The position numbers and the translations under genes were made by a program. The notes beneath the pieces were generated by a model. It had not been told where the DNA came from, ran no database searches, and saw only the letters and a program-made list of their open reading frames with translations. Positions 1-45,181 of a stretch of DNA of 64,000 bases are shown in pieces; position 1 is the stretch's first letter; the number at the start of each line of letters is the position of its first letter. The DNA comes from Escherichia coli (GTDB lineage: Bacteria > Pseudomonadota > Gammaproteobacteria > Enterobacterales > Enterobacteriaceae), in assembly GCF_002854065.1 (NCBI RefSeq), contig NZ_CP024147.1. One strand, 5' to 3'.

Positions 1-21
1 ATTTGTGGACTAAATCTAGTT

Positions 22-38
22 TTGGAAAAATATTCCAA
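22..38. promoter_or_regulatory. AllR operator-like palindrome TTGGAAaaatatTTCCAA upstream of allA
   Basis: Near-perfect inverted repeat TTGGAA/TTCCAA in the region upstream of allA; same half-sites recur before gcl. Confidence 0.5.
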
Positions 39-143
39 CTTTTGTATTGATGTTGTTCTCTTAAGGTTTTAGATTGCCTGTTATTGAAACCAAGCTGACC
101 GGTCGGCGGTGGTTGAACGGAATTATGTTACAAGGACAAAAAG

Positions 144-626
144 ATGAAACTTCAGGTATTACCGTTAAGTCAGGAAGCCTTTAGTGCTTATGGCGACGTA
201 ATCGAAACGCAGCAACGGGATTTTTTCCATATTAACAATGGCCTGGTGGAGCGTTACCACGATTTGGCGCTGGTTGAGATTCTTGAGCAAGACCGTACGC
301 TTATCAGCATTAACCGCGCGCAACCGGCGAATCTGCCGCTGACCATTCACGAACTCGAACGTCATCCGCTGGGTACTCAGGCCTTTATCCCGATGAAAGG
401 TGAGGTGTTTGTGGTGGTCGTGGCGTTAGGTGACGACAAACCAGACCTGTCAACCCTGCGGGCGTTTATTACCAACGGCGAACAGGGAGTGAATTACCAT
501 CGTAACGTCTGGCATCACCCACTTTTCGCCTGGCAGCGCGTCACCGATTTTCTGACCATCGATCGCGGCGGCAGTGACAACTGTGATGTTGAAAGTATTC
601 CTGAACAGGAACTCTGTTTTGCGTGA
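144..626 (+). CDS. allA: ureidoglycolate lyase
   Basis: 160-aa ORF recognised as AllA; located immediately upstream of allR as in E. coli. Confidence 0.9.
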
Positions 627-703
627 CGCCTGCAACCGACTTGCATAAGATAAACTAATTGTTCATTGTTTATGCTCACTTGTAGGTCGGAGTTAACGTA
701 GGT

Positions 704-1519
704 ATGACGGAAGTTAGACGGCGCGGCAGGCCAGGACAGGCGGAGCCTGTGGCACAGAAGGGCGCACAGGCATTAGAGCGGGGAATTGCGATTCTGCAAT
801 ATCTGGAAAAAAGTGGGGGAAGTTCGTCGGTTAGCGATATTTCTCTCAATCTGGATTTGCCGCTCTCCACGACCTTTCGCTTGCTGAAGGTTTTACAGGC
901 AGCGGATTTTGTCTATCAGGACAGTCAGTTAGGCTGGTGGCATATAGGATTAGGTGTCTTTAACGTCGGTGCAGCGTACATCCATAACCGCGATGTCCTC
1001 TCCGTCGCCGGGCCGTTTATGCGCCGCCTGATGTTACTTTCCGGCGAAACGGTCAATGTCGCGATCCGTAACGGCAATGAAGCGGTATTAATTGGTCAGT
1101 TAGAGTGTAAATCGATGGTCAGGATGTGCGCGCCACTGGGCAGTCGTCTGCCACTGCATGCTTCCGGTGCGGGCAAAGCGCTGCTTTATCCGCTGGCGGA
1201 AGAGGAGTTGATGAGCATCATTCTGCAAACCGGTTTGCAGCAGTTTACGCCAACTACGCTTGTGGATATGCCCACCCTGCTGAAGGACCTGGAACAAGCG
1301 CGTGAACTGGGCTATACCGTAGATAAAGAAGAGCATGTTGTAGGCCTGAATTGCATAGCTTCAGCAATTTATGACGATGTCGGTAGTGTTGTTGCCGCTA
1401 TCTCCATCTCCGGGCCTTCATCAAGACTGACAGAAGATCGTTTTGTCAGTCAGGGTGAGCTGGTCAGAGACACCGCCCGCGATATCAGCACGGCGTTGGG
1501 ACTGAAAGCACATCCATAA
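704..1519 (+). CDS. allR: IclR-family repressor of the allantoin regulon
   Basis: 271-aa ORF recognised as AllR; synteny allA-allR-gcl. Confidence 0.9.
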
Positions 1520-1531
1520 TGTCTGTCGCAT

Positions 1532-1556
1532 CCCGCTCTGCGGAGCGGGTTTTTTT
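1532..1556 (+). terminator. rho-independent terminator after allR
   Basis: Stem CCCGCTC/GAGCGGG with 4-nt loop followed by TTTTTTT. Confidence 0.6.
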
Positions 1557-1571
1557 GACAAAATTTGAAAG

Positions 1572-1588
1572 TTGGAAAATTTTTCCAA
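1572..1588. promoter_or_regulatory. AllR operator-like palindrome TTGGAAaatttTTCCAA in gcl promoter
   Basis: Inverted repeat TTGGAA/TTCCAA about 20 nt upstream of the gcl start; matches site at 22-38. Confidence 0.55.
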
Positions 1589-1608
1589 TTAATAGAGGTA
1601 GGAATAAA

Positions 1609-3390
1609 ATGGCAAAAATGAGAGCCGTTGACGCGGCAATGTATGTGCTGGAGAAAGAAGGTATCACCACCGCCTTCGGTGTTCCGGGAGCTGCAATCAA
1701 TCCGTTCTACTCAGCGATGCGTAAGCACGGCGGTATTCGTCACATTCTGGCGCGTCATGTGGAAGGTGCTTCGCACATGGCGGAAGGTTATACCCGCGCA
1801 ACGGCAGGGAATATCGGCGTATGTCTGGGGACTTCCGGTCCTGCGGGCACGGACATGATCACCGCGCTCTATTCTGCTTCTGCTGATTCCATTCCTATTC
1901 TGTGCATTACCGGCCAGGCTCCGCGCGCCCGTCTGCATAAAGAAGATTTTCAGGCCGTAGATATTGAAGCAATTGCTAAACCGGTCAGCAAAATGGCGGT
2001 TACAGTACGTGAAGCGGCGCTGGTGCCTCGCGTGCTGCAACAGGCATTTCACCTGATGCGTTCTGGTCGTCCGGGTCCGGTACTGGTGGATTTACCGTTC
2101 GACGTTCAGGTTGCGGAAATCGAGTTTGATCCTGACATGTACGAACCGCTGCCGGTCTACAAACCTGCTGCCAGCCGTATGCAGATCGAAAAAGCTGTAG
2201 AAATGTTAATCCAGGCCGAACGTCCGGTGATTGTTGCCGGGGGCGGGGTAATCAATGCTGACGCAGCTGCACTGTTACAACAGTTTGCTGAACTGACCAG
2301 CGTTCCGGTGATCCCAACGCTGATGGGCTGGGGCTGTATCCCGGACGATCATGAACTGATGGCCGGGATGGTCGGTCTGCAAACCGCGCATCGTTACGGT
2401 AACGCAACGTTGCTGGCGTCCGACATGGTGTTTGGTATCGGTAACCGTTTTGCTAACCGTCATACCGGTTCGGTAGAGAAATACACCGAAGGGCGCAAAA
2501 TCGTTCATATCGATATTGAGCCGACGCAAATTGGTCGCGTGCTGTGTCCGGATCTCGGCATTGTCTCTGATGCTAAAGCGGCGCTGACACTGCTGGTTGA
2601 AGTGGCGCAGGAGATGCAAAAAGCGGGTCGTCTGCCGTGTCGTAAAGAATGGGTCGCCGACTGCCAGCAGCGCAAACGCACTTTGCTGCGCAAAACCCAC
2701 TTCGACAACGTGCCGGTGAAACCGCAGCGCGTGTATGAAGAGATGAACAAAGCCTTTGGTCGCGATGTTTGTTATGTCACCACCATTGGCCTGTCACAAA
2801 TCGCTGCGGCACAAATGCTGCATGTCTTTAAAGACCGCCACTGGATCAACTGTGGTCAGGCTGGTCCGTTAGGCTGGACGATTCCGGCGGCGCTGGGGGT
2901 TTGTGCCGCTGATCCGAAACGCAATGTGGTGGCGATTTCTGGCGACTTTGACTTCCAGTTCCTGATTGAAGAGTTAGCCGTTGGCGCGCAGTTCAACATT
3001 CCGTACATCCATGTGCTGGTGAATAACGCCTATCTCGGCCTGATTCGTCAGTCACAACGCGCCTTTGACATGGACTACTGCGTGCAACTCGCTTTCGAGA
3101 ATATCAACTCCAGCGAAGTGAACGGTTACGGCGTCGACCACGTAAAAGTAGCGGAAGGTTTAGGTTGTAAAGCGATTCGCGTCTTCAAACCGGAAGATAT
3201 TGCACCGGCCTTTGAACAGGCGAAAGCCTTAATGGCGCAATATCGGGTACCGGTAGTCGTGGAAGTTATTCTCGAGCGTGTGACCAATATTTCGATGGGC
3301 AGCGAACTGGATAACGTCATGGAATTTGAAGATATCGCCGATAACGCAGCGGATGCACCGACTGAAACCTGCTTCATGCACTATGAATAA
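1609..3390 (+). CDS. gcl: glyoxylate carboligase (tartronate-semialdehyde synthase)
   Basis: 593 aa from [18 protein letters not shown]; ThDP-enzyme; track ORF 1519 start rejected because terminator and operator lie inside the extension. Confidence 0.92.
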
Positions 3391-3402
3391 GGGAGATAAA
3401 TA

Positions 3403-4179
3403 ATGTTACGTTTCTCTGCTAATTTATCGATGTTATTTGGTGAATATGATTTTCTCGTCCGTTTTGAGAAAGCTGCGCAGTGTGGTTTTCGCGGCGTTGA
3501 ATTTATGTTCCCTTATGACTACGACATTGAAGAATTAAAACAGGTACTGGCGAGTAATAAACTCGAACATACGCTGCACAATTTACCGGCAGGTGACTGG
3601 GCGGCGGGCGAGCGGGGTATTGCCTGTATTCCTGGCCGTGAAGAAGAGTTTCGGGATGGCGTAGCAGCAGCGATTCGTTATGCTCGTGCGCTGGGTAATA
3701 AAAAAATTAACTGTCTGGTCGGTAAAACGCCGACTGGTTTCAGCAGTGAACAGATTCACGCAACGCTTGTAGAAAACCTGCGTTATGCCGCGAATATGCT
3801 GATGAAAGAAGATATTTTATTACTGATTGAACCTATTAACCATTTTGATATTCCTGGTTTCCATCTCACCGGAACTCGGCAGGCGCTGAAATTGATTGAT
3901 GATGTTGGTTGCTGCAATTTGAAAATTCAGTATGACATTTATCACATGCAGCGGATGGAAGGTGAATTAACCAACACCATGACTCAGTGGGCCGATAAAA
4001 TTGGTCACCTGCAAATTGCCGATAATCCGCATCGCGGCGAACCGGGGACCGGAGAAATTAATTATGATTATCTCTTTAAGGTAATCGAAAATTCTGACTA
4101 CAACGGTTGGGTTGGTTGTGAATATAAACCCCAAACTACCACGGAAGCCGGTTTACGCTGGATGGATCCGTACCGTTAA
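3403..4179 (+). CDS. hyi: hydroxypyruvate isomerase
   Basis: 258-aa ORF recognised as Hyi; gcl-hyi-glxR synteny. Confidence 0.9.
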   Translation: MLRFSANLSMLFGEYDFLVRFEKAAQCGFRGVEFMFPYDYDIEELKQVLASNKLEHTLHNLPAGDWAAGERGIACIPGREEEFRDGVAAAIRYARALGNKKINCLVGKTPTGFSSEQIHATLVENLRYAANMLMKEDILLLIEPINHFDIPGFHLTGTRQALKLIDDVGCCNLKIQYDIYHMQRMEGELTNTMTQWADKIGHLQIADNPHRGEPGTGEINYDYLFKVIENSDYNGWVGCEYKPQTTTEAGLRWMDPYR

Positions 4180-4278
4180 AACGTAACGCTGTTCAGGCAA
4201 TGCTTTTTTAGGCCGCTAAGTTGGCAGGGGATCGTGTTGTCTGAATCCAGGAAAAGCAAAATTTAAAAGAGGTTAATT

Positions 4279-5157
4279 ATGAAACTGGGATTTATTGGCT
4301 TAGGCATTATGGGTACACCGATGGCCATTAATCTGGCGCGTGCCGGTCATCAACTGCATGTCACAACCATTGGTCCGGTTGCTGATGAATTACTGTCACT
4401 GGGTGCCGTCAGTGTTGAAACTGCGCACCAGGTAACGGAAGCATCGGACATCATTTTTATTATGGTGCCGGATACACCACAGGTTGAAGAAGTTCTGTTC
4501 GGTGAAAATGGTTGTACCAAAGCCTCGCTGAAGGGCAAAACCATTGTTGATATGAGCTCCATTTCCCCGATTGAAACTAAACGTTTCGCTCGTCAGGTGA
4601 ATGAACTGGGCGGTGATTATCTCGATGCGCCAGTCTCCGGCGGTGAAATCGGCGCGCGTGAAGGGACGTTGTCAATTATGGTTGGCGGTGACGAAGCGGT
4701 ATTTGAACGTGTTAAACCGCTGTTTGAACTGCTCGGTAAAAATATCACCCTTGTGGGCGGTAACGGCGACGGTCAAACCTGCAAAGTGGCAAATCAGATT
4801 ATCGTAGCGCTCAATATTGAAGCGGTCTCTGAAGCTCTGCTGTTTGCTTCAAAAGCCGGTGCAGACCCGGTACGTGTGCGCCAGGCGCTGATGGGCGGCT
4901 TTGCTTCCTCACGTATTCTGGAAGTTCACGGTGAGCGCATGATTAAACGCACCTTTAATCCAGGTTTCAAAATTGCGCTGCACCAGAAAGATCTCAACCT
5001 GGCACTGCAAAGTGCGAAGACACTGGCGCTGAACCTGCCAAACACCGCGACCTGCCAGGAGTTATTTAATACCTGTGCGGCAAACGGTGGCAGCCAGTTG
5101 GATCACTCTGCGTTAGTGCAGGCGCTGGAATTAATGGCGAATCATAATCTGGCCTGA
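4279..5157 (+). CDS. glxR: tartronate semialdehyde reductase
   Basis: 292-aa ORF with N-terminal GxGxxG NAD-binding motif (GFIGLGIMG); recognised as GlxR. Confidence 0.9.
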   Translation: MKLGFIGLGIMGTPMAINLARAGHQLHVTTIGPVADELLSLGAVSVETAHQVTEASDIIFIMVPDTPQVEEVLFGENGCTKASLKGKTIVDMSSISPIETKRFARQVNELGGDYLDAPVSGGEIGAREGTLSIMVGGDEAVFERVKPLFELLGKNITLVGGNGDGQTCKVANQIIVALNIEAVSEALLFASKAGADPVRVRQALMGGFASSRILEVHGERMIKRTFNPGFKIALHQKDLNLALQSAKTLALNLPNTATCQELFNTCAANGGSQLDHSALVQALELMANHNLA

Positions 5158-5325
5158 TACCCGCAATAAAAATGGCCGATATCAGAAAATGAATCGGCCA
5201 GCAATATTAAAAAAGAAAGCAGCCAAAGATGTTGCTTCAGTATTAAAAATAATATTTTTATTTTATTTGTTCCTCATAGCTAGATTAAAACAACGTTATT
5301 CGATACGTGAAATTAAGAGGGATTT

Positions 5326-6780
5326 ATGGAACATCAGAGAAAACTATTCCAGCAACGCGGCTATAGCGAAGATCTATTGCCGAAAACGCAAAGCCAGCGG
5401 ACCTGGAAAACATTTAACTATTTTACCTTATGGATGGGTTCGGTTCATAACGTTCCCAATTATGTGATGGTCGGCGGCTTTTTTATTCTCGGCTTGTCTA
5501 CCTTTAGTATTATGCTGGCAATTATCCTCAGCGCCTTTTTCATTGCCGCGGTAATGGTATTAAACGGCGCTGCGGGCAGTAAATACGGCGTACCGTTTGC
5601 CATGATCCTGCGTGCTTCTTACGGCGTACGTGGCGCACTGTTTCCCGGATTATTAAGAGGCGGTATTGCTGCCATTATGTGGTTTGGCCTGCAATGTTAC
5701 GCGGGGTCACTGGCCTGCTTGATTCTGATTGGCAAAATCTGGCCGGGATTTTTGACTCTCGGTGGTGATTTCACTCTATTAGGCCTTTCTCTACCGGGCT
5801 TAATTACTTTCTTACTCTTCTGGCTGGTCAACGTTGGTATAGGTTTTGGCGGTGGCAAAGTTTTAAATAAATTCACTGCCATTCTTAACCCGTGCATCTA
5901 TATCGTTTTCGGCGGTATGGCGATTTGGGCGATTTCGCTGGTCGGGCTCGGTCCAATCTTTGACTACATTCCGAGCGGTATTCAGAAAGCAGAAAACAGT
6001 GGATTCTTGTTCCTGGTGGTGATTAACGCGGTAGTTGCGGTCTGGGCGGCACCGGCGGTGAGCGCATCCGACTTTACGCAAAACGCCCACTCGTTTCGTG
6101 AGCAAGCGCTGGGGCAAACGCTGGGTTTAGTTGTGGCCTATATTCTGTTTGCGGTCGCTGGGGTATGTATTATTGCCGGAGCCAGTATTCACTACGGCGC
6201 TGACACCTGGAACGTGCTGGATATTGTTCAGCGTTGGGACAGCCTGTTTGCCTCGTTCTTTGCGGTACTGGTTATTCTGATGACGACCATTTCCACTAAC
6301 GCCACCGGTAATATTATTCCGGCCGGTTATCAGATTGCTGCCATTGCACCGACAAAACTGACCTATAAAAACGGCGTACTGATTGCCAGTATTATCAGCC
6401 TGCTGATCTGCCCGTGGAAATTAATGGAAAATCAGGACAGTATTTATCTGTTCCTCGATATCATCGGCGGAATGCTGGGTCCGGTAATTGGTGTCATGAT
6501 GGCGCATTATTTTGTGGTGATGCGTGGGCAAATTAATCTTGATGAACTGTACACCGCACCTGGCGATTATAAATATTACGATAACGGTTTTAACCTCACC
6601 GCGTTTTCAGTAACTCTGGTGGCCGTTATTTTATCTCTTGGCGGTAAGTTTATTCCCTTTATGGAACCGTTATCGCGTGTTTCATGGTTTGTCGGCGTCA
6701 TCGTCGCCTTTGCGGCCTACGCCTTATTAAAGAAACGTACAACAGCAGAAAAAACAGGAGAGCAAAAAACCATAGGTTAA
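5326..6780 (+). CDS. ybbW: allantoin permease (NCS1 family transporter)
   Basis: 484-aa polytopic membrane ORF recognised as YbbW/AllW. Confidence 0.85.
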   Translation: MEHQRKLFQQRGYSEDLLPKTQSQRTWKTFNYFTLWMGSVHNVPNYVMVGGFFILGLSTFSIMLAIILSAFFIAAVMVLNGAAGSKYGVPFAMILRASYGVRGALFPGLLRGGIAAIMWFGLQCYAGSLACLILIGKIWPGFLTLGGDFTLLGLSLPGLITFLLFWLVNVGIGFGGGKVLNKFTAILNPCIYIVFGGMAIWAISLVGLGPIFDYIPSGIQKAENSGFLFLVVINAVVAVWAAPAVSASDFTQNAHSFREQALGQTLGLVVAYILFAVAGVCIIAGASIHYGADTWNVLDIVQRWDSLFASFFAVLVILMTTISTNATGNIIPAGYQIAAIAPTKLTYKNGVLIASIISLLICPWKLMENQDSIYLFLDIIGGMLGPVIGVMMAHYFVVMRGQINLDELYTAPGDYKYYDNGFNLTAFSVTLVAVILSLGGKFIPFMEPLSRVSWFVGVIVAFAAYALLKKRTTAEKTGEQKTIG

Positions 6781-6839
6781 TTAATCCCGATATTGAACAT
6801 TGAGTTAAAAACCAATCTGTATTTTACAAGGAGTTTGTT

Positions 6840-8201
6840 ATGTCTTTTGATTTAATCATTAAAAACGGCACCGTTATTTTAGAAAACGAAGCTCGCGTTG
6901 TAGATATCGCCGTTAAAGGCGGCAAAATTGCTGCTATCGGTCAGGATCTGGGCGATGCAAAAGAAGTTATGGATGCGTCTGGTCTGGTGGTTTCGCCGGG
7001 CATGGTTGATGCGCACACCCATATTTCTGAACCGGGTCGTAGCCACTGGGAAGGTTATGAAACCGGTACTCGCGCAGCGGCAAAAGGTGGTATCACCACC
7101 ATGATCGAAATGCCGCTCAACCAGCTGCCTGCAACGGTTGACCGCGCTTCAATTGAACTGAAGTTCGATGCCGCTAAAGGCAAGCTGACTATCGATGCGG
7201 CACAACTCGGTGGCCTGGTGTCTTACAACATCGACCGTCTGCATGAGCTGGATGAAGTGGGCGTTGTCGGCTTCAAATGCTTCGTTGCGACCTGTGGCGA
7301 TCGCGGTATCGACAACGACTTCCGTGATGTAAACGACTGGCAGTTCTTCAAAGGTGCGCAGAAGCTGGGCGAACTGGGGCAGCCGGTGCTGGTGCACTGC
7401 GAAAACGCGCTGATCTGTGACGCACTGGGCGAAGAAGCGAAACGTGAAGGTCGCATAACTGCCCATGACTATGTGGCTTCGCGTCCGGTATTTACCGAAG
7501 TGGAAGCGATTCGCCGCGTGCTGTATCTGGCGAAAGTTGCCGGTTGCCGTCTGCACGTTTGCCATATCAGCAGCCCGGAAGGCGTTGAAGAAGTGACTCG
7601 TGCACGTCAGGAAGGTCAGGACGTTACTTGTGAATCCTGCCCGCATTACTTTGTACTGGATACCGATCAGTTCGAAGAAATCGGTACTCTGGCGAAGTGT
7701 TCACCGCCGATCCGCGATCTGGAAAACCAGAAAGGCATGTGGGAAAAACTGTTTAACGGTGAAATCGACTGCCTGGTTTCCAACCACTCACCATGCCCTC
7801 CGGAAATGAAAGCCGGCAACATCATGGAAGCATGGGGCGGTATTGCCGGTCTGCAAAACTGTATGGACGTGATGTTCGATGAAGCGGTACAGAAACGCGG
7901 AATGTCTCTGCCAATGTTCGGCAAATTAATGGCGACTAACGCAGCAGATATTTTCGGTCTGCAGCAAAAAGGCCGTATCGCCCCAGGAAAAGATGCCGAC
8001 TTCGTCTTCATTCAGCCGAATAGCAGCTATGTTCTTACCAATGACGATCTGGAATATCGCCACAAAGTCAGCCCGTATGTTGGCCGTACCATTGGCGCGC
8101 GTATCACGAAAACCATCTTACGTGGTGATGTGATTTACGACATCGAACAGGGCTTCCCTGTTGCGCCGAAAGGTCAATTTATCCTTAAACATCAGCAGTA
8201 A
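6840..8201 (+). CDS. allB: allantoinase
   Basis: 453-aa ORF with amidohydrolase metal-binding motifs (DAHTH); recognised as AllB. Confidence 0.92.
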
Positions 8202-8251
8202 TCTGGCCCCTGCAATGCCCGTCCTTGCGGCGGGCATTCTCCGGTTAAGGT

Positions 8252-9559
8252 GTGTTTATGTTCAATTTTGCAGTTAGCCGCGAAAGCCTGTTATCAGGAT
8301 TTCAGTGGTTTTTCTTTATTTTTTGCAACACGGTTGTGGTTCCTCCTACGCTACTTTCTGCTTTTCAGTTGCCGCAAAGTAGCCTGCTTACGCTCACGCA
8401 ATATGCTTTTCTTGCTACCGCACTGGCCTGCTTCGCTCAGGCGTTTTGCGGTCATCGTCGCGCTATTATGGAAGGGCCGGGGGGCCTGTGGTGGGGAACC
8501 ATCCTAACTATCACCCTTGGCGAAGCATCGCGCGGGACACCGATCAACGATATCGCCACCAGCCTGGCAGTGGGGATTGCGCTCTCCGGCGTGCTGACGA
8601 TGTTGATTGGTTTTAGCGGATTAGGCCATCGCCTGGCACGGTTATTTACGCCGTCGGTGATGGTCTTGTTTATGTTGATGCTGGGCGCGCAGCTGGCCAC
8701 TATCTTTTTCAAAGGTATGCTCGGGCTGCCGTTTGGCATAGCCGACCCAAATTTTAAAATTCAGTTACCACCGTTCGCGCTCTCGGTGGCGGTGATGTGC
8801 CTAGTACTGGCGATGATTATTTTCCTGCCGCAACGTTTTGCCCGTTATGGCCTGCTGGTCGGCACCATAACCGGCTGGTTGTTGTGGGACTTTTGCTTTC
8901 CTTCTTCGCATTCGCTCTCCGGTGAGTTGCACTGGCAGTGGTTCCCGCTCGGCAGTGGCGGTGCTTTGTCTCCGGGGATTATTCTGACGGCGGTGATTAC
9001 AGGTCTGGTGAATATCAGCAATACCTACGGTGCGATTCGGGGCACGGATGTTTTTTATCCGCAGCAGGGCGCGGGGAATACGCGTTATCGTCGTAGCTTT
9101 GTGGCGACCGGATTTATGACGCTGATAACCGTACCGCTGGCGGTAATTCCATTTTCACCGTTTGTTTCATCCATTGGTTTATTAACCCAGACTGGCGATT
9201 ACACGCGGCGTTCGTTTATTTATGGCAGCGTTATTTGCCTGCTGGTGGCGCTGGTTCCTGCACTCACGCGACTGTTTTGCAGTATCCCTTTACCCGTGAG
9301 TAGTGCGGTCATGCTGGTTTCTTATCTGCCTTTACTCTTTTCCGCGCTGGTGTTTAGCCAGCAAATAACGTTTACCGCTCGCAATATTTATCGACTCGCA
9401 TTGCCGTTATTTGTCGGCATATTTTTAATGGCATTACCGCCTGTGTATCTGCAAGACCTTCCATTAACGCTTCGTCCTCTGCTCAGTAACGGCTTATTGG
9501 TCGGGATTTTACTGGCTGTTCTTATGGATAACCTTATTCCGTGGGAACGCATCGAATAA
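8252..9559 (+). CDS. ybbY: putative purine/uracil permease family transporter
   Basis: 435-aa hydrophobic ORF recognised as YbbY; start may be 2 codons later. Confidence 0.8.
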   Translation: MFMFNFAVSRESLLSGFQWFFFIFCNTVVVPPTLLSAFQLPQSSLLTLTQYAFLATALACFAQAFCGHRRAIMEGPGGLWWGTILTITLGEASRGTPINDIATSLAVGIALSGVLTMLIGFSGLGHRLARLFTPSVMVLFMLMLGAQLATIFFKGMLGLPFGIADPNFKIQLPPFALSVAVMCLVLAMIIFLPQRFARYGLLVGTITGWLLWDFCFPSSHSLSGELHWQWFPLGSGGALSPGIILTAVITGLVNISNTYGAIRGTDVFYPQQGAGNTRYRRSFVATGFMTLITVPLAVIPFSPFVSSIGLLTQTGDYTRRSFIYGSVICLLVALVPALTRLFCSIPLPVSSAVMLVSYLPLLFSALVFSQQITFTARNIYRLALPLFVGIFLMALPPVYLQDLPLTLRPLLSNGLLVGILLAVLMDNLIPWERIE

Positions 9560-31489: not shown

Positions 31490-32122
31490 TTATATTAATT
31501 CGTATAATTTGGCGTAGTCGATAAGCTCTACAATTGAATGTAAACCTAGCTTGCCATAAATATTAGATTTATGCGCACTAACTGTTTTATTGCTAAGTAA
31601 TAACTTATCGGCAATTTCTTTATTAGATAATCCGCTAACCAGATAACGTAATATGGTCACTTCACGATTAGATAGCACAGTGACCGTTGAACTATTCGTA
31701 CTACATTTATTGCTTTTTATATAGTTAAGCGTTTCGCTGGGAAAAAACGTGTATCCGGAGAGGATCATCTGAACGGCATGAAAAATATCATTCTGATCAT
31801 TGCATTTACTGACAAAACCGTTAGCACCAGCTTGTATCGCTCTGCCAGCATAAAAGCATTCTGATTTCGATGATAAAAATAACACTTTCACTGTGCTCTG
31901 GATTTGTTTGATCCTTTTCAGGAAGGTAAAACCGTCTGTTCCGGGCAAGTCTATATCCATAATGATTAAATCAACAGGACGGGTTCGGAGATAATCGATG
32001 GTTATGCGGTAATCATCCGTTTTCAGGACAATCTGCAATTCACTGTTTTTTTGCAACAGAACTTCAATAGACATTCTGATGATAGGATGAGTATCCATAA
32101 TGATCACCGACGTTGGTTTCAT
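31490..32122 (-). CDS. fimZ: LuxR-family response regulator of fimbrial expression
   Basis: 210 aa from MKPTSVIIMDTHPIIR; receiver domain plus C-terminal HTH. Confidence 0.88.
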   Translation of the reverse strand: MKPTSVIIMDTHPIIRMSIEVLLQKNSELQIVLKTDDYRITIDYLRTRPVDLIIMDIDLPGTDGFTFLKRIKQIQSTVKVLFLSSKSECFYAGRAIQAGANGFVSKCNDQNDIFHAVQMILSGYTFFPSETLNYIKSNKCSTNSSTVTVLSNREVTILRYLVSGLSNKEIADKLLLSNKTVSAHKSNIYGKLGLHSIVELIDYAKLYELI

Positions 32123-32364
32123 AGTTACCAGTCTCATAGGAGCGGACAATTTTCCGTTAGGGCGGTAAATTGTACTTTGATACATGAAAATACGGGTTTT
32201 CTTGATTCAGACGCGCAGCGATGTGCATTTGTTTGCCGCTATAGCGAAATAAATCAGAAAATCAGACGCGGTCGTTCACTTGTTCAGCAACCAGATCAAA
32301 AGCCATTGACTCAGCAAGGGTTGACCGTATAATTCACGCGATTACACCGCATTGCGGTATCAAC

Positions 32365-32441
32365 GCGCCCTTAGCTCAGTTGGATAGAGCAACGACCTTC
32401 TAAGTCGTGGGCCGCAGGTTCGAATCCTGCAGGGCGCGCCA
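32365..32441 (+). tRNA. argU: tRNA-Arg (anticodon UCU)
   Basis: 77-nt sequence GCGCCCTTAGCTCAGTTGGATAGAGCAACGACCTTCTAAGTCGTGGGCCGCAGGTTCGAATCCTGCAGGGCGCGCCA with cloverleaf and CCA end. Confidence 0.95.
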
Positions 32442-33620: not shown

Positions 33621-33847
33621 TTTCTTTCCTCTGTTATGCCATCACCCGCGCTCACCTGGACAGTATGCAGCGGAGACTGAAGCGCCGCAATGCAGGCTTG
33701 CCGTGTTGTGAGGTAAGGAGATTTTGGCTTGGTTGGATCTTTACGTGTTGCCTGTAGGCGGCCTGTTCGTATCCAGTTGGTGGCGGTTGGTCTGGATATC
33801 TTAAGAAACTGACAGGCCTCATCGAGTGTGAGGCTGTATGATTCCAT
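33476..33847 (-). CDS. excisionase/AlpA-like wHTH protein (possibly degenerate)
   Basis: [34 protein letters not shown] motif; reading frame runs 145 nt into int, suggesting altered 3' end. Confidence 0.5.
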
Positions 33848-34097
33848 GGTTACCTCTGCTTTTTGAACGCATGTCACGTAACTTCTTAATGTGTTCTGCC
33901 GTTTCGATCTCTTCTGCTATCCGATCTGCATCAGCTTTATTCACAGGTTCAAAGTCATGATTAAAGCGGAACATGCTGGCGATACATGTTCTGCCTTTTC
34001 GGATGTAGTGAACTTTGTTGTGGGTAGAACGCAGGATTTTGCAGGGAGTGCCGTGGTGGTCGACGTACCAGGTGTTAGGAAAAATGATTCTGAACAT
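33819..34097 (-). CDS. hypothetical prophage protein
   Basis: 92-aa ORF in early-left operon orientation; no recognisable motif. Confidence 0.35.
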   Translation of the reverse strand: MFRIIFPNTWYVDHHGTPCKILRSTHNKVHYIRKGRTCIASMFRFNHDFEPVNKADADRIAEEIETAEHIKKLRDMRSKSRGNHGIIQPHTR

Positions 34098-34363: not shown

Positions 34364-34590
34364 CTTTCATTAATCCCTGAATTGTTGGTTAATACGCTTG
34401 AGGGTAAATGCGAATAATAAAAAAGGAGCCTGTAGCTCCCTGATGATTTTGCTTTTCATGTTCACCGTTCCTTAAAGACGCCGTTCAACATGCCGATCGC
34501 CATGCTTAAATGAGTCGGTGTGAATCCCATCAGCGTTACCGTTTCGCGGTGCTTCTTTAGTATCTGGCTGAAAGAGGGGGTTATTAAGGC

Positions 34591-34953
34591 GTGAATACCT
34601 ACAGCATCACATTACCCTGGCCTCCGAGCAATAATCGCTATTACCGCCATAATCGCGGGCGCACGCACGTCAGCGCAGAGGGGCAGGCATACCGCGATAA
34701 CGTCGCCCGAATCATTAAAAACGCAATGCTGGATATCGGCCTGGCTATGCCTGTGAAAATCCGCATTGAGTGCCACATGCCGGATCGCCGTCGCCGTGAC
34801 CTGGATAATCTGCAAAAAGCCGCTTTTGACGCACTCACTAAAGCAGGTTTCTGGCTGGATGATGCTCAGGTCGTTGATTACCGCGTTGTGAAGATGCCTG
34901 TTACCAAAGGTGGGAGGCTGGAACTGACCATCACCGAAATGGGGAATGAATGA
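34591..34953 (+). CDS. rusA: Holliday junction resolvase RusA
   Basis: 120-aa ORF recognised as RusA; GTG start with AGAGGGGG SD. Confidence 0.9.
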
Positions 34954-35175: not shown

Positions 35176-35559
35176 ATGCGTGATATTCAGATGGTTCTTG
35201 AGCGTTGGGGAGCGTGGGCGGCTAATAATCATGAAGATGTGACCTGGTCGTCCATTGCCGCCGGTTTTAAGGGATTAATTCCTTCAAAAGTAAAATCTCG
35301 CCCGCAATGTTGTGACGATGACGCGATGATCATTTGCGGGTGCATGGCCCGTCTGAAAAAGAACAACAGCGATTTGCACGATTTATTAGTAGATTATTAT
35401 ATAGTCGGTATGACATTCATGTCACTGGCAGGTAAGCATTGCTGCTCTGATGGTTATATCGGGAAAAGGTTACAAAAGGCTGAGGGCATAATTGAAGGGA
35501 TGTTAATGGCATTAGATATCCGGTTAGAGATGGATATCGTTGTTAATAACTCTAATTAA
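35176..35559 (+). CDS. quuD: late gene antiterminator Q
   Basis: 127 aa from [18 protein letters not shown] with zinc-binding cysteines; phage Q family. Confidence 0.85.
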
Positions 35560-35747: not shown

Positions 35748-36830
35748 TTAGAACTGGTAAACCATACCTACAGCAACGATATCATCGGTAGCAACGCCAG
35801 ATGCTTTCGTGAAATCGCTCTTATCAATCAGGTTGATTTTGTAGTCAACAAAAGTGGACATATTTTTGTTGAAGTAATAGGTTGCACCTACATCAACATA
35901 TTCAACCAGGTCCTGATCACCCCAAACACCCAAGTCTTTTCCTTTAGAATGCAGGTAAGCAACGGATGGACGCAGGCCGAAGTCGAACTGATATTGTGCA
36001 ACAGCTTCGAAGTTTTGTGCTTTGTTGGCAATATGGTTATTACCAAAAACAGTCATGTTCTGGGTTTCAGAATAGGTGGTGGCCAGATAGATGTTGTTCG
36101 CATCATATTTCAGACCAGCTGCCCATACTTCAGCATTTTGACCAGAAGCATTCAGACCGTTGTTACCGTAGATAACCTGATTATTAGTGCGATCAGATTT
36201 AGCATAGGTTGCACCCACGCCGAATCCTTCATACTCATAAGTAGTTGAGAAACCGAAACCATCGCCATTAGCTTCAGTTACTTCATTTCGGTCATTTTTG
36301 CCCTGATACTGAGCTGCAAAGTTCAGGCCATCAACCAGACCAAAGAAGTCGTTGTTACGATAAGTTGCAACACCTGTGGTGCGACCAGTCATGAACACAT
36401 CTGTTTGGGTCCAGGTATCGCCACCGAATTCTGGCAGAACGTCAGTCCACGCACCGATGTCGTATGCTACACCGTAGTTACGGCCGTAATCGATTGAGCC
36501 GTAGTCACCGAATTTCAGGCCAGCGAAGGCAAGACGGGTTTTATCTTTGGAGGAACCTTGAGATTCAGCGCGGTTGCCTTTGAATTCATATTCCCACTGA
36601 CCGAAACCAGTCAGTTGATCGTTGATTTGGGTTTCACCTTTGAAGCCAAGACGGGCATAAGTAGTATCACCATCATCTGCATCATTAGAGGAGAAGTAGT
36701 GCTTAGCATTAACTTTCCCGTACAGATCCAGCTTGTTACTGTCTTTATTATAAATTTCAGCTGCCTGAGCAGACATCGCCATCAGTACTGATGCAGCTAC
36801 AGCAGAAATTGCCACTGTTAATTTTTTCAT
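35748..36830 (-). CDS. nmpC: OmpC/OmpF-family outer membrane porin, intact
   Basis: 360-aa ORF with signal peptide [23 protein letters not shown] and C-terminal ...VYQF; recognised as NmpC. Confidence 0.9.
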
Positions 36831-38866: not shown

Positions 38867-39265
38867 ATGGAATTGGCAAGTGAATTTTCTGGCATGCTTA
38901 AGTCGTCAGGTGTTCGGTCAGCGTTCTTTGTTGAAATGCTGATGCACGGCGGACTTATGGCAACAATGAGACGTGTAATGGAAGACCAGAGAAAAGAACC
39001 TCCTCAGGTATACGTTTTGTCATCGAAGAAAACTGGGCTAACCAAAATTGGGTATTCATCCAACATTCCACAACGCATCAAATCGCTTGGCAACTCTGGA
39101 CCAGACTGCTTGAAGCTTGAGTGCCTGATCCCTGGTGGAAGAGAAACTGAAAACATGCTTCATCGCAAATTTGCCGCAAAGAGAAAGCACGGTGAATGGT
39201 TCGCCCTGTCCAAGGATGACATTGAGGGATTGAAATCTGTAGCGATTACTTCTGATGGCTATTAA
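38867..39265 (+). CDS. T5orf172/GIY-YIG-like domain protein
   Basis: 132-aa ORF; motif VYVL..TGLTKIGYS..RIKSL...HRKF...HGEWFAL; in frame with a 24-codon upstream ORF separated by one TAA. Confidence 0.45.
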   Translation: MELASEFSGMLKSSGVRSAFFVEMLMHGGLMATMRRVMEDQRKEPPQVYVLSSKKTGLTKIGYSSNIPQRIKSLGNSGPDCLKLECLIPGGRETENMLHRKFAAKRKHGEWFALSKDDIEGLKSVAITSDGY

Positions 39266-43852: not shown

Positions 43853-43907
43853 GGTGATGCTGCCAACTTACTGATTTAGTGTATGATGGTGTTTTTGAGG
43901 TGCTCCA

Positions 43908-44183
43908 GTGGCTTCTGTTTCTATCAGCTGTCCCTCCTGTTCAGCTACTGACGGGGTGGTGCGTAACGGCAAAAGCACTGCCGGACATCAGCGCTATCTC
44001 TGCTCTCACTGCCGTAAAACATGGCAACTGCAGTTCACTTACACCGCTTCTCAACCCGGTACGCACCAGAAAATCATTGATATGGCCATGAATGGCGTTG
44101 GATGCCGGGCAACCGCCCGCATTATGGGCGTTGGCCTCAACACGATTTTCCGCCATTTAAAAAACTCAGGCCGCAGTCGGTAA
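43908..44183 (+). CDS. insA: IS1 InsA
   Basis: 91-aa [33 protein letters not shown]. Confidence 0.9.
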
Positions 44184-44605
44184 CCTCGCGCATACAGCCG
44201 GGCAGTGACGTCATCGTCTGCGCGGAAATGGACGAACAGTGGGGATACGTCGGGGCTAAATCGCGCCAGCGCTGGCTGTTTTACGCGTATGACAGTCTCC
44301 GGAAGACGGTTGTTGCGCACGTATTCGGTGAACGCACTATGGCGACGCTGGGGCGTCTTATGAGCCTGCTGTCACCCTTTGACGTGGTGATATGGATGAC
44401 GGATGGCTGGCCGCTGTATGAATCCCGCCTGAAGGGAAAGCTGCACGTAATCAGCAAGCGATATACGCAGCGAATTGAGCGGCATAACCTGAATCTGAGG
44501 CAGCACCTGGCACGGCTGGGACGGAAGTCGCTGTCGTTCTCAAAATCGGTGGAGCTGCATGACAAAGTCATCGGGCATTATCTGAACATAAAACACTATC
44601 AATAA
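44102..44605 (+). CDS. insB: IS1 InsB (expressed as InsAB' by -1 frameshift)
   Basis: 167-aa ORF in -1 frame relative to insA; A6C slippery motif at 44159-44165. Confidence 0.85.
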
Positions 44606-45181
44606 GTTGGAGTCATTACCGCTTATTCAACCATAATAAACAGTATGTATATCATAGGTTATTAATTGTGAGTTTTTTCGGTGTGTTATTTGTTTGTTTG
44701 ATGTTATGCTTTTGCGCCCCAAAAGGTTGTTTAGATGTATTTTATCAATTGATTTTCAATATCGTTTAATAAAGAAAAATTAAGCAAGCTGGATGTTGGT
44801 TTTTTGTTAATTGAATGGTTCTAATAATGTTTTTTTACTGTTGTTGAATGTGACTTGATAAGAAATGCAAGTAAAAATGATACTCTTTTTATTTTAAATT
44901 CAAACGGTTGACATATATATAGCAAGAGGTTTCAGGTGCGTTGTAGTGAGTTTATGTTAATAAAAAGTATAGTAAGCGTTGAAAAATGTAACTTTGAAAT
45001 ACGTTAGAATAAAAAACAATATACATATAATAATTTAATCTTAAATGAAATTTATTAAAATTTGCAAACTATAATTTTGTGTATAAAAATATAAATGCAC
45101 ATCATCCTGATTATGATTGTGTATTTAATTGGTTGTTATTTGACTGCTATCAACTTGTTTTAATTTTATGATAGGTGCAAG

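Follow-up and report, generated by a model that had tools for sequence, protein, structure and literature searches.

The gap upstream of a K-12-type rusA gene in an eroded Escherichia coli prophage is a deletion scar with an apparently recurrent right endpoint

The gene rusA, encoding a Holliday-junction resolvase, lies in a stretch of 64,000 nucleotides of Escherichia coli DNA (assembly GCF_002854065.1, contig NZ_CP024147.1), here called the window. It is preceded by a gap of 227 bp (34364-34590) and a TraR-like gene in divergent orientation. The locus raises the question of what this gap is and what it says about rusA. A first-pass annotation had described it as an AT-rich divergent control region without a strong promoter, in front of a cryptic gene that starts at GTG. 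The length of the gap and the orientation of the neighbour are as described there. A native regulatory region of TraR and rusA is contradicted by alignments, which identify the gap as a scar of three unrelated pieces, with the left arm of a prophage joined to the last ~30 nt of ybcO. Sequence comparison indicates that the right end of the scar is a recurrent, nucleotide-precise, one-sided (polar) deletion hotspot in lambdoid prophages.

The region was compared by megablast with 5,426 complete E. coli genomes, and the alignments split exactly at 34561/34562. Thousands of genomes match the left part, from int to a gene resembling lambda orf61, or the right part, ybcO-rusA-ylcG-quuD, and both parts lie close together in only seven of them. 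A three-way alignment of the window, K-12 and an O121:H19 prophage with an intact left arm places the crossover within a shared TA. The event was a deletion and not an insertion, because the left-arm sequence that it displaced occurs nowhere else in the window. A single illegitimate deletion joined a TA in the orf61/ZapA-like gene to the TA 30 nt 5' of the rusA GTG. It took out exo/bet, N, the immunity region, O/P and the nin genes up to about codon 86 of ybcO. The middle piece of the scar derives from the orf61-like gene, which is labelled 'ZapA' or 'hypothetical' by the annotation pipeline PGAP and is present at full length in O121:H19 strain 16-9255. The AT-richness claimed for the gap holds for the 98 bp next to the TraR gene (36.7% GC). 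The remainder has 49-52% GC, and the whole gap, at 44.1% against 49.6% for the window, falls at the 22nd percentile of all 227-bp segments of the window sequence. Two of the complete genomes, 100416 and CUWW06, and a single IMG/VR contig share the exact junction. The native ybcO-rusA arrangement is present in 2,968 complete genomes, and ~500 further genomes carry another allele of the ybcO family, with its recombination point 56 nt 5' of the TA. The locus is a rare deletion variant, and a description of a hotspot at ybcO/rusA could not be found in the literature.

As a finding on rusA itself, the gene is ordinary and already known. Its open reading frame (ORF) of 120 codons is intact, as first annotated, and a longer form is excluded by an in-frame TAA at 34585-34587, one codon 5' of the GTG. 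The protein is identical in 120 of 120 residues to E. coli K-12 RusA (PDB 1Q8R) and matches the Pfam family RusA (PF05866) with 82 bits (cut-off 22.8) over profile positions 1-123 of 124. In the annotation of the near-identical strain 100416 it carries the K-12 accession WP_001099712.1. The translation contains the catalytic acidic triad D70, D72 and D91 and the basic residues R69 and K76, whose roles are given here according to the reference list of PMC1636454. On every sequence-level count the gene is assigned to the RusA family and to the K-12 allele, in agreement with the name it was first given. Its product would be expected to cleave junctions and to suppress ruv mutations, as judged from identity to the characterised K-12 enzyme.

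The GTG start, formerly read as a pointer to crypticity, is native. In K-12, ybcO (573085-573375) and rusA (573372-573734) share the 4 nt GTGA. The phage 82 record X92588 has the same stop/start overlap (orf96 = ybcO), and a ribosome-binding site AGGGGG was annotated there by the discoverers of rus, 10 nt 5' of the GTG. A GTG with a rather distant ribosome-binding site in a stop/start overlap would be the usual layout of translationally coupled nin-region genes, and it is no sign of decay or crypticity.

The right end of the scar is shared with other deletions. Genomes with a left arm near rusA have differing left truncation points and an identical right end. Sampling of the hotspot used 120 IMG/VR loci containing a 37-mer across the rusA start, chosen without junction selection. 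Exact scans for a non-native base before TATCTGGCTGAAAGAGGGGG covered IMG/VR, the JGI metagenomes and the GTDB representative genomes. Eight distinct left flanks were found joined to the same TA, in the form left sequence-TA-TCTGGCTG...rusA. In class 1 the left partner is the orf61/ZapA-like gene (window, 100416, CUWW06 and locus L076; microhomology of 2 nt). In classes 2 and 3 it is a DUF1317 gene (PK8566, and probably EC20-4B-2, by the same two-piece match; 2 nt) and a DUF1382 gene (A10 at icd, and L129; 3 nt), respectively. The partner in class 4 is a site near xis (L008; 2 nt), and in class 5 a Dam-like methylase gene of a thrW prophage whose left arm is shared with the window (L057; 4 nt). 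Class 6 involves a cro-like gene on the plus strand (L116 and L130; 3 nt), class 7 codon 20 of a lambda-type O gene (H6, and probably H5, by the same partial match; 2 nt), and class 8 gam, joined to a divergent rusA allele (L131; 2 nt). Comparison with intact left partners places a TA at the crossover in all eight classes, for which the chance expectation is ~(1/16)^8.

All eight classes are deletions, the displaced left-partner sequence being absent downstream in each. L008 and L013 are identical up to the junction, beyond which L008 shows a clean loss of 5.7 kb. Deleted distances range from ~0.35 kb to most of the prophage early region, and the prophages concerned sit at argU, thrW, icd and other sites. 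A full 120-codon rusA is retained in six of the eight classes. The exceptions are the A10 class, where another deletion fuses rusA to Q, and L131, where the contig ends inside the gene.

Some of these loci carry features of their own. The second deletion in the icd prophage of A10 (L005, 3505-4317) left rusA 3'-truncated and fused to a Q gene without its N-terminus. The deletions in H6 (L128, 4282-5394) and in L116/L130 set rusA-ylcG-Q directly behind the early rightward promoter pR. In H6 an in-frame fusion ORF combines the first 20 O codons with the final 10 of ybcO, and its stop codon shares bases with the rusA GTG; the truncated cro-like ORF of L116 stops 6 nt short of this start codon. 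For these two classes SOS-inducible expression of RusA and Q is predicted, cI being retained at least in H6.

Several controls delimit the hotspot. Within the 120-locus set, four of ~10 rearrangement classes located within 1 kb 5' of rusA fall on the hotspot TA. The others are singletons: an insertion of an IS3 element (IS, insertion sequence), an internal ybcN-ybcO deletion and two left-arm fusions. The scans before TATCTGGCTGAAAGAGGGGG yielded deletion junctions, point variants and one chance match in Clostridiaceae, and no IS end or element abutting the hotspot was present in any of the three collections. Exact scans of IMG/VR gave no reciprocal products (ybcO...GGTTA joined to foreign DNA), no junctions 1-2 nt to the right of the TA and none at a second GGTTAT 21 nt downstream. 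A second pattern for reciprocal products matched only point variants, C to G or C to T. Among complete genomes the junction classes are rare, with at most ~58 of 3,511 matching records, seven of them identified. None of 46 sequenced phages with this rusA carries a hotspot junction, as expected because the deletions remove essential genes.

Further observations concern sequences at or like the hotspot. The chance match (L145, 1926-1946) is a copy of the hotspot 21-mer in a Clostridiaceae metagenome-assembled genome, where it encodes DIWLKEGE within a gene for a D-Ala-D-Ala carboxypeptidase-like protein and has no relation to the phage locus. The exo/orf60a spacer contains another recurrent endpoint, weaker than the first (GCGCC-TA-CCCGG; GACGAAAGTGATCGCGCC-TA-CCCGG), and two further classes with different right ends use it. 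Their crossovers lie at a TA in ybcN (GGT-TA-TGAAACC) and at ACC in ybcO, respectively. The loci are L107 (~2828-2860) and L006 (ET776, ~3634-3660), and intact copies occur, e.g. in L075 (~370-385). A direct repeat of 14/15 nt, CAGGTT(A)TCTGGCTG, has one copy at the hotspot and the other 287 bp downstream, within rusA (K-12 locus L002, ~2997-3011 and ~3285-3297; window, 34563-34570 and 34850-34857). It encodes IWL in YbcO and FWL in RusA, and the window keeps only the TCTGGCTG core of the first copy.

The scar also bears on expression of rusA. In K-12 the gene is normally quiescent and is turned on by upstream insertions of IS2 or IS10 (PMC1636454, PMC10956419). The first-pass annotation had proposed the same for the window, a gene normally silent and activatable by insertions. 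The silent state accords with the K-12 literature; the activation result is not directly transferable, because ybcO, which in K-12 lies directly 5' of rusA, where the activating insertions are reported, is absent here. The deletion removed the early promoters, including the sole promoter proposed by the phage 82 authors for the gene block (X92588), which lies ~1.06 kb upstream in front of orf33. Translational coupling to ybcO was lost, and the native ribosome-binding site and start codon were kept. Over the ~2.1 kb that separate argU from rusA, all ORFs and annotated genes (int, a xis remnant, DUF4222 and TraR) are on the minus strand. The ORF list and the annotation show no IS element in this interval, the IS1 and IS2 copies of the window both being downstream. 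A consensus pattern scan found four promoter-like matches in the gap against 3.6 +/- 1.7 in shuffled sequences, and a single weak one faces rusA. To the extent of such a scan, the earlier statement that no strong promoter reads towards rusA is sustained. Since there is no co-oriented upstream gene, the promoters are deleted, coupling to ybcO is lost and the promoter match is at chance level, rusA is probably silent or very weakly expressed here. Re-expression would need a new promoter within ~200 bp upstream, e.g. from an IS with outward transcription.

Appreciable expression of rusA is unlikely. It could arise from the promoter-like site at 34389-34418, from transcription entering from the argU side, or by coupling to a chimeric ORF of 24 codons. 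Six-frame translation places this ORF between a GTG at 34520 and the TGA at 34594, with the ybcO tail at its end and the native GTGA overlap retained. Together with the native ribosome-binding site it means that any fortuitous transcript could be translated, and the promoter-like match (9/12) is on the right strand. However, a match of this quality is expected by chance, a hairpin with a partial T-run stands behind it, and no convincing ribosome-binding site precedes 34520. In sequences with this junction rusA is intact, with 0-4 substitutions, which would fit a gene in use but may only reflect a recent deletion.

The joint reading of the locus comprises a K-12-type rusA, an eroded prophage, a single-deletion scar, a recurrent, precise and one-sided hotspot, and a rusA that is most likely silent. 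It is put forward with good confidence. A number of points weigh against it. No enzyme, DNA structure or binding site was recognised that explains the hotspot. The site forms no stable hairpin (folding z = +0.74 against shuffles), and dyad symmetry around the TA amounts to 2/12 over 12 nt on each side. Apart from the argU tRNA, no Rfam family was matched in the search that covered the gap. At the hotspot 10 of 13 positions fit the gyrase cleavage consensus, a comparison made post hoc. Crossovers shifted by more than 2 nt, or junctions with divergent rusA alleles, would escape the exact-pattern scans, and the one-sidedness could partly stem from the way prophages are detected in IMG/VR. Some RusA could also be made from the weak promoter-like site, from antisense or read-through transcription, or through the chimeric ORF.

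For the mechanism, a site-specific break, nick or replication arrest between GGT and TA with rejoining at TA microhomology is proposed with low confidence, as one among several alternatives. The rusA-side end would be preserved and then ligated to any TA to the left through a terminal microhomology of 2 nt. Alternatively, the nascent strand on the rusA side would act as a primer terminus and switch template at a leftward TA. Still more doubtful is the assumption that the TA in GGT-TA-TCTGGCTGAAAGAGGGGG, 30 nt 5' of rusA, is the target of an unrecognised site-specific cleaving or fork-arresting activity. Deletion hotspots with a fixed end were reportedly found at terB and at the origin nick sites of M13 and pC194 by Bierne, Michel and Ehrlich between 1986 and 1991. 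These share with the present site an end fixed to the nucleotide, a variable other end with very short homology, polarity, and deletions as the only products. They differ in that 34561-34562 has no recognisable Ter site, origin, HUH nickase or nick consensus. A candidate agent is YbcO, a His-Me finger nuclease of unknown function (PMC5714182); it is a natural suspect because the 3' end of its own gene contains the site. Alternatively, a host factor might bind the 30 bp on the side of rusA.

Other candidates were tried and rejected. Consensus sequences for Chi, dif/cer, Ter, lambda att, the ends of IS10, IS5, IS1 and IS3-family elements, and relaxase nic sites do not fit the hotspot. A former IS, lost by excision after an adjacent deletion, left no intermediate in the scans of IMG/VR, JGI and GTDB. 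A 4-nt heteroduplex of gyrase type predicts crossovers 1-2 nt to the right, which were not found in IMG/VR. The GGTTAT motif as determinant is opposed by its second copy downstream, unused in IMG/VR. A DNA hairpin or cruciform was discarded because the sequence folds no better than shuffles; the one inverted repeat at the hotspot is weak (21 nt, 71% complementary). A mobile rusA-Q segment inserting at TA sites does not agree with the absence of displaced left sequence downstream, nor with the simple 5.7-kb deletion in L008/L013.

A TA-specific transposase or an enzyme of serine-recombinase type might also be considered, with the 30 bp right of the TA serving as a pseudo-end or pseudo-site joined to TA targets. 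The strict crossover at TA, in eight of eight events and in both partners, and the exact, one-sided preservation of the rusA side are what a transposon end or a 2-bp staggered exchange would be expected to produce. Against this, the sequence beside the TA resembles a terminal inverted repeat of the IS630/Tc1/mariner type in only 6 of 13 positions (TA-AATAGCTGCGCGG of IS630 versus TA-TCTGGCTGAAAGA at the hotspot), and no element was seen at the site in any sequence. A serine-recombinase site would have dyad symmetry, which is lacking (2/12), and a palindromic TA core should permit inversions as well as deletions, whereas eight deletions and no inversions were found. Such an enzyme is considered improbable.

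It has also to be asked whether the shared endpoint reflects selection or ascertainment, only deletions that end there surviving or being detected. All events keep the ribosome-binding site and the gene of rusA and all lose ybcO, a nuclease gene (PMC5714182), and the scans were anchored on sequence right of the TA. Selection cannot, however, fix one dinucleotide, as the next 25 nt contain two more TAs and neither is used. The 120-locus set, moreover, contains other endpoints in ybcN/ybcO, each a singleton, and in the complete genomes the R-type junctions, i.e. those at the hotspot TA, have no weaker partial match ranked below them. This explanation is very unlikely.

The view that the gap is a native TraR/rusA control region, whose AT-richness, lack of promoters and GTG start keep rusA cryptic, would suit the divergent 227-bp arrangement, the lack of a strong promoter match and the reported quiescence of rusA in K-12, but it is hardly credible given a gene remnant and a ybcO tail in the gap, a GC content of 44% at the 22nd percentile, the native, coupled GTG of K-12 and phage 82, an arrangement found in 2 of 5,426 complete genomes versus 2,968 with ybcO-rusA, and TraR-rusA adjacency in none of the 46 phage records carrying this rusA.

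The locus is a heavily eroded DLP12-type lambdoid prophage at argU (Table 1). This assignment follows from argU beside fimZ, from intD and from the block rusA-ylcG-quuD-porin-essD-rrrD. The gene order is fimZ, argU, intD, a xis remnant, DUF4222, TraR, rusA, ylcG, quuD, an nmpC-type porin gene and essD-rrrD-Rz, followed by further remnants and then by appY, ompT, envY and nfrA. Intact relatives have rusA in the nin region, within the co-oriented, closely spaced or overlapping run ylcH-ybcN-ninE-ybcO-rusA-ylcG-Q. The TraR neighbour matches the profile of C4 zinc fingers (PF01258). The nearest complete genome is that of strain 100416 (99.9% identity), from which the window differs by two extra insertions.

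Table 1. Positions of features around rusA in the window, with the evidence for each
Feature	Position	Strand	Evidence or remark
fimZ	31490-32185	-	Just upstream of argU
tRNA-Arg gene argU, attachment site of the DLP12-type prophage	32365-32441	+	Rfam tRNA, 72 bits at 32365-32438; RefSeq annotation of strain 100416
intD, integrase, 387 aa	32457-33620	-	ORF list; annotated intD in strain 100416
DUF4222 protein gene, prophage left arm	33819-34097	-	Pfam PF13973, 69 bits; annotation
TraR/DksA-family zinc-finger protein gene, 72 aa	34145-34363	-	zf-dskA_traR PF01258, 37.3 bits (cut-off 24.9); annotation
Gap piece 1, upstream region of the TraR gene	34364-34461		Holds the leftward terminator-like hairpin
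Only sigma-70-like match facing rusA, TTAATA-18-AATAAT, weak	34389-34418	+	Consensus scan, 9/12; hairpin follows immediately
Terminator-like hairpin for leftward transcription	34423-34441	-	Terminator scan; 8-pair stem, then T-run; between the orf61/ZapA-like and TraR genes
Gap piece 2, 3' remnant (102 bp) of a 71-aa lambda-orf61/ZapA-like gene	34462-34563	-	N-terminus missing; 49% GC; pseudogene in 100416 and CUWW06 annotations
Deletion junction TA, hotspot 'R'	34561-34562		Megablast break at query 962/963; three-way alignment; 30 nt 5' of rusA GTG
Gap piece 3, last 10 ybcO codons and stop	34563-34594	+	K-12 alignment, six-frame translation; TGA overlaps rusA GTG
rusA ribosome-binding site AGGGGG	34575-34580	+	10 nt 5' of GTG; position equivalent to the site annotated in X92588
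rusA, Holliday-junction resolvase, 120 aa	34591-34953	+	GTG start; ORF list
ylcG, 46 aa	34950-35090	+	Overlaps rusA stop (ATGA); ORF list, annotation
quuD, Q antiterminator	35176-35559	+	Pfam Phage_antitermQ, 181 bits; annotation

The two insertions are an IS1 and an IS2. The IS1 copy (768 bp, 43853-44620) lies within the remnant of a tail-fibre-assembly gene. The IS2 copy (47112-48440; TnpA and TnpB by NCBIfam) is inserted ~23 nt inside the 5' end of ompT, which is on the minus strand. It is of the type that activates rusA in the K-12 mutant rus-1, yet it sits 12.5 kb downstream of rusA. The nmpC-type porin gene (35748-36830, minus strand) is intact with 360 codons and has its best NCBIfam match in the OmpC subfamily; its K-12 counterpart is interrupted by IS5. 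An ORF of 132 codons 3' of the lysis cassette (38867-39265, plus strand) is annotated as a GIY-YIG nuclease in strain 100416 and has no NCBIfam match.

The closest known system is rusA (ybcP) of DLP12 in K-12, in which rus-1 is an IS2 and rus-2 an IS10 insertion. It has the identical 120-residue protein, the same GTG and ribosome-binding site, the same downstream genes (ylcG, quuD, an nmpC-type porin gene, essD-rrrD) and the same site, argU beside fimZ. K-12 differs in having ybcN-ninE-ybcO directly 5' of rusA, as well as emrE, ybcK, ybcL and ybcM. In the window this order is missing, and the left arm (int, DUF4222, TraR and the orf61 remnant) directly adjoins the terminal ~30 nt that remain of ybcO. 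Phage 82 rus (X92588; Mahdi et al., 1996) shares the order orf96(ybcO)-rus-orf45(ylcG)-Q, the GTGA overlap, the AGGGGG site and the hotspot sequence GGTTATCTGGCTGAAAGAGGGGG. Phage 82, however, is functional and transcribes rus together with the nin region, whereas the window holds a remnant without early promoters, and the two RusA proteins differ in five amino acids. The locus also resembles the 'grounding' or decay of prophages as reviewed in PMC6379469, in that a defective prophage has lost immunity, replication and recombination genes and has kept the lysis cassette and morons. Decay of this kind is usually portrayed as a random process, in contrast to the single exact endpoint common to eight lineages here; a site of this sort goes unmentioned in the review.

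For the reading of prophage loci, these results mean that DNA separating two divergent genes of a prophage remnant can be the scar of a deletion, from which it is unsafe to read promoters or to transfer regulation known from K-12. A precise, polar hotspot would imply a specific DNA transaction, i.e. cleavage, nicking or arrest, at this position of the nin region. Breaks healed by TA-microhomology joining would repeatedly 'ground' prophages, with loss of replication and immunity genes and retention of rusA, Q and the lysis cassette. If the activity is that of YbcO or of another nin-region protein, a widespread, uncharacterised phage nuclease would gain a function, and the recurrent disarming of lambdoid prophages a mechanism.

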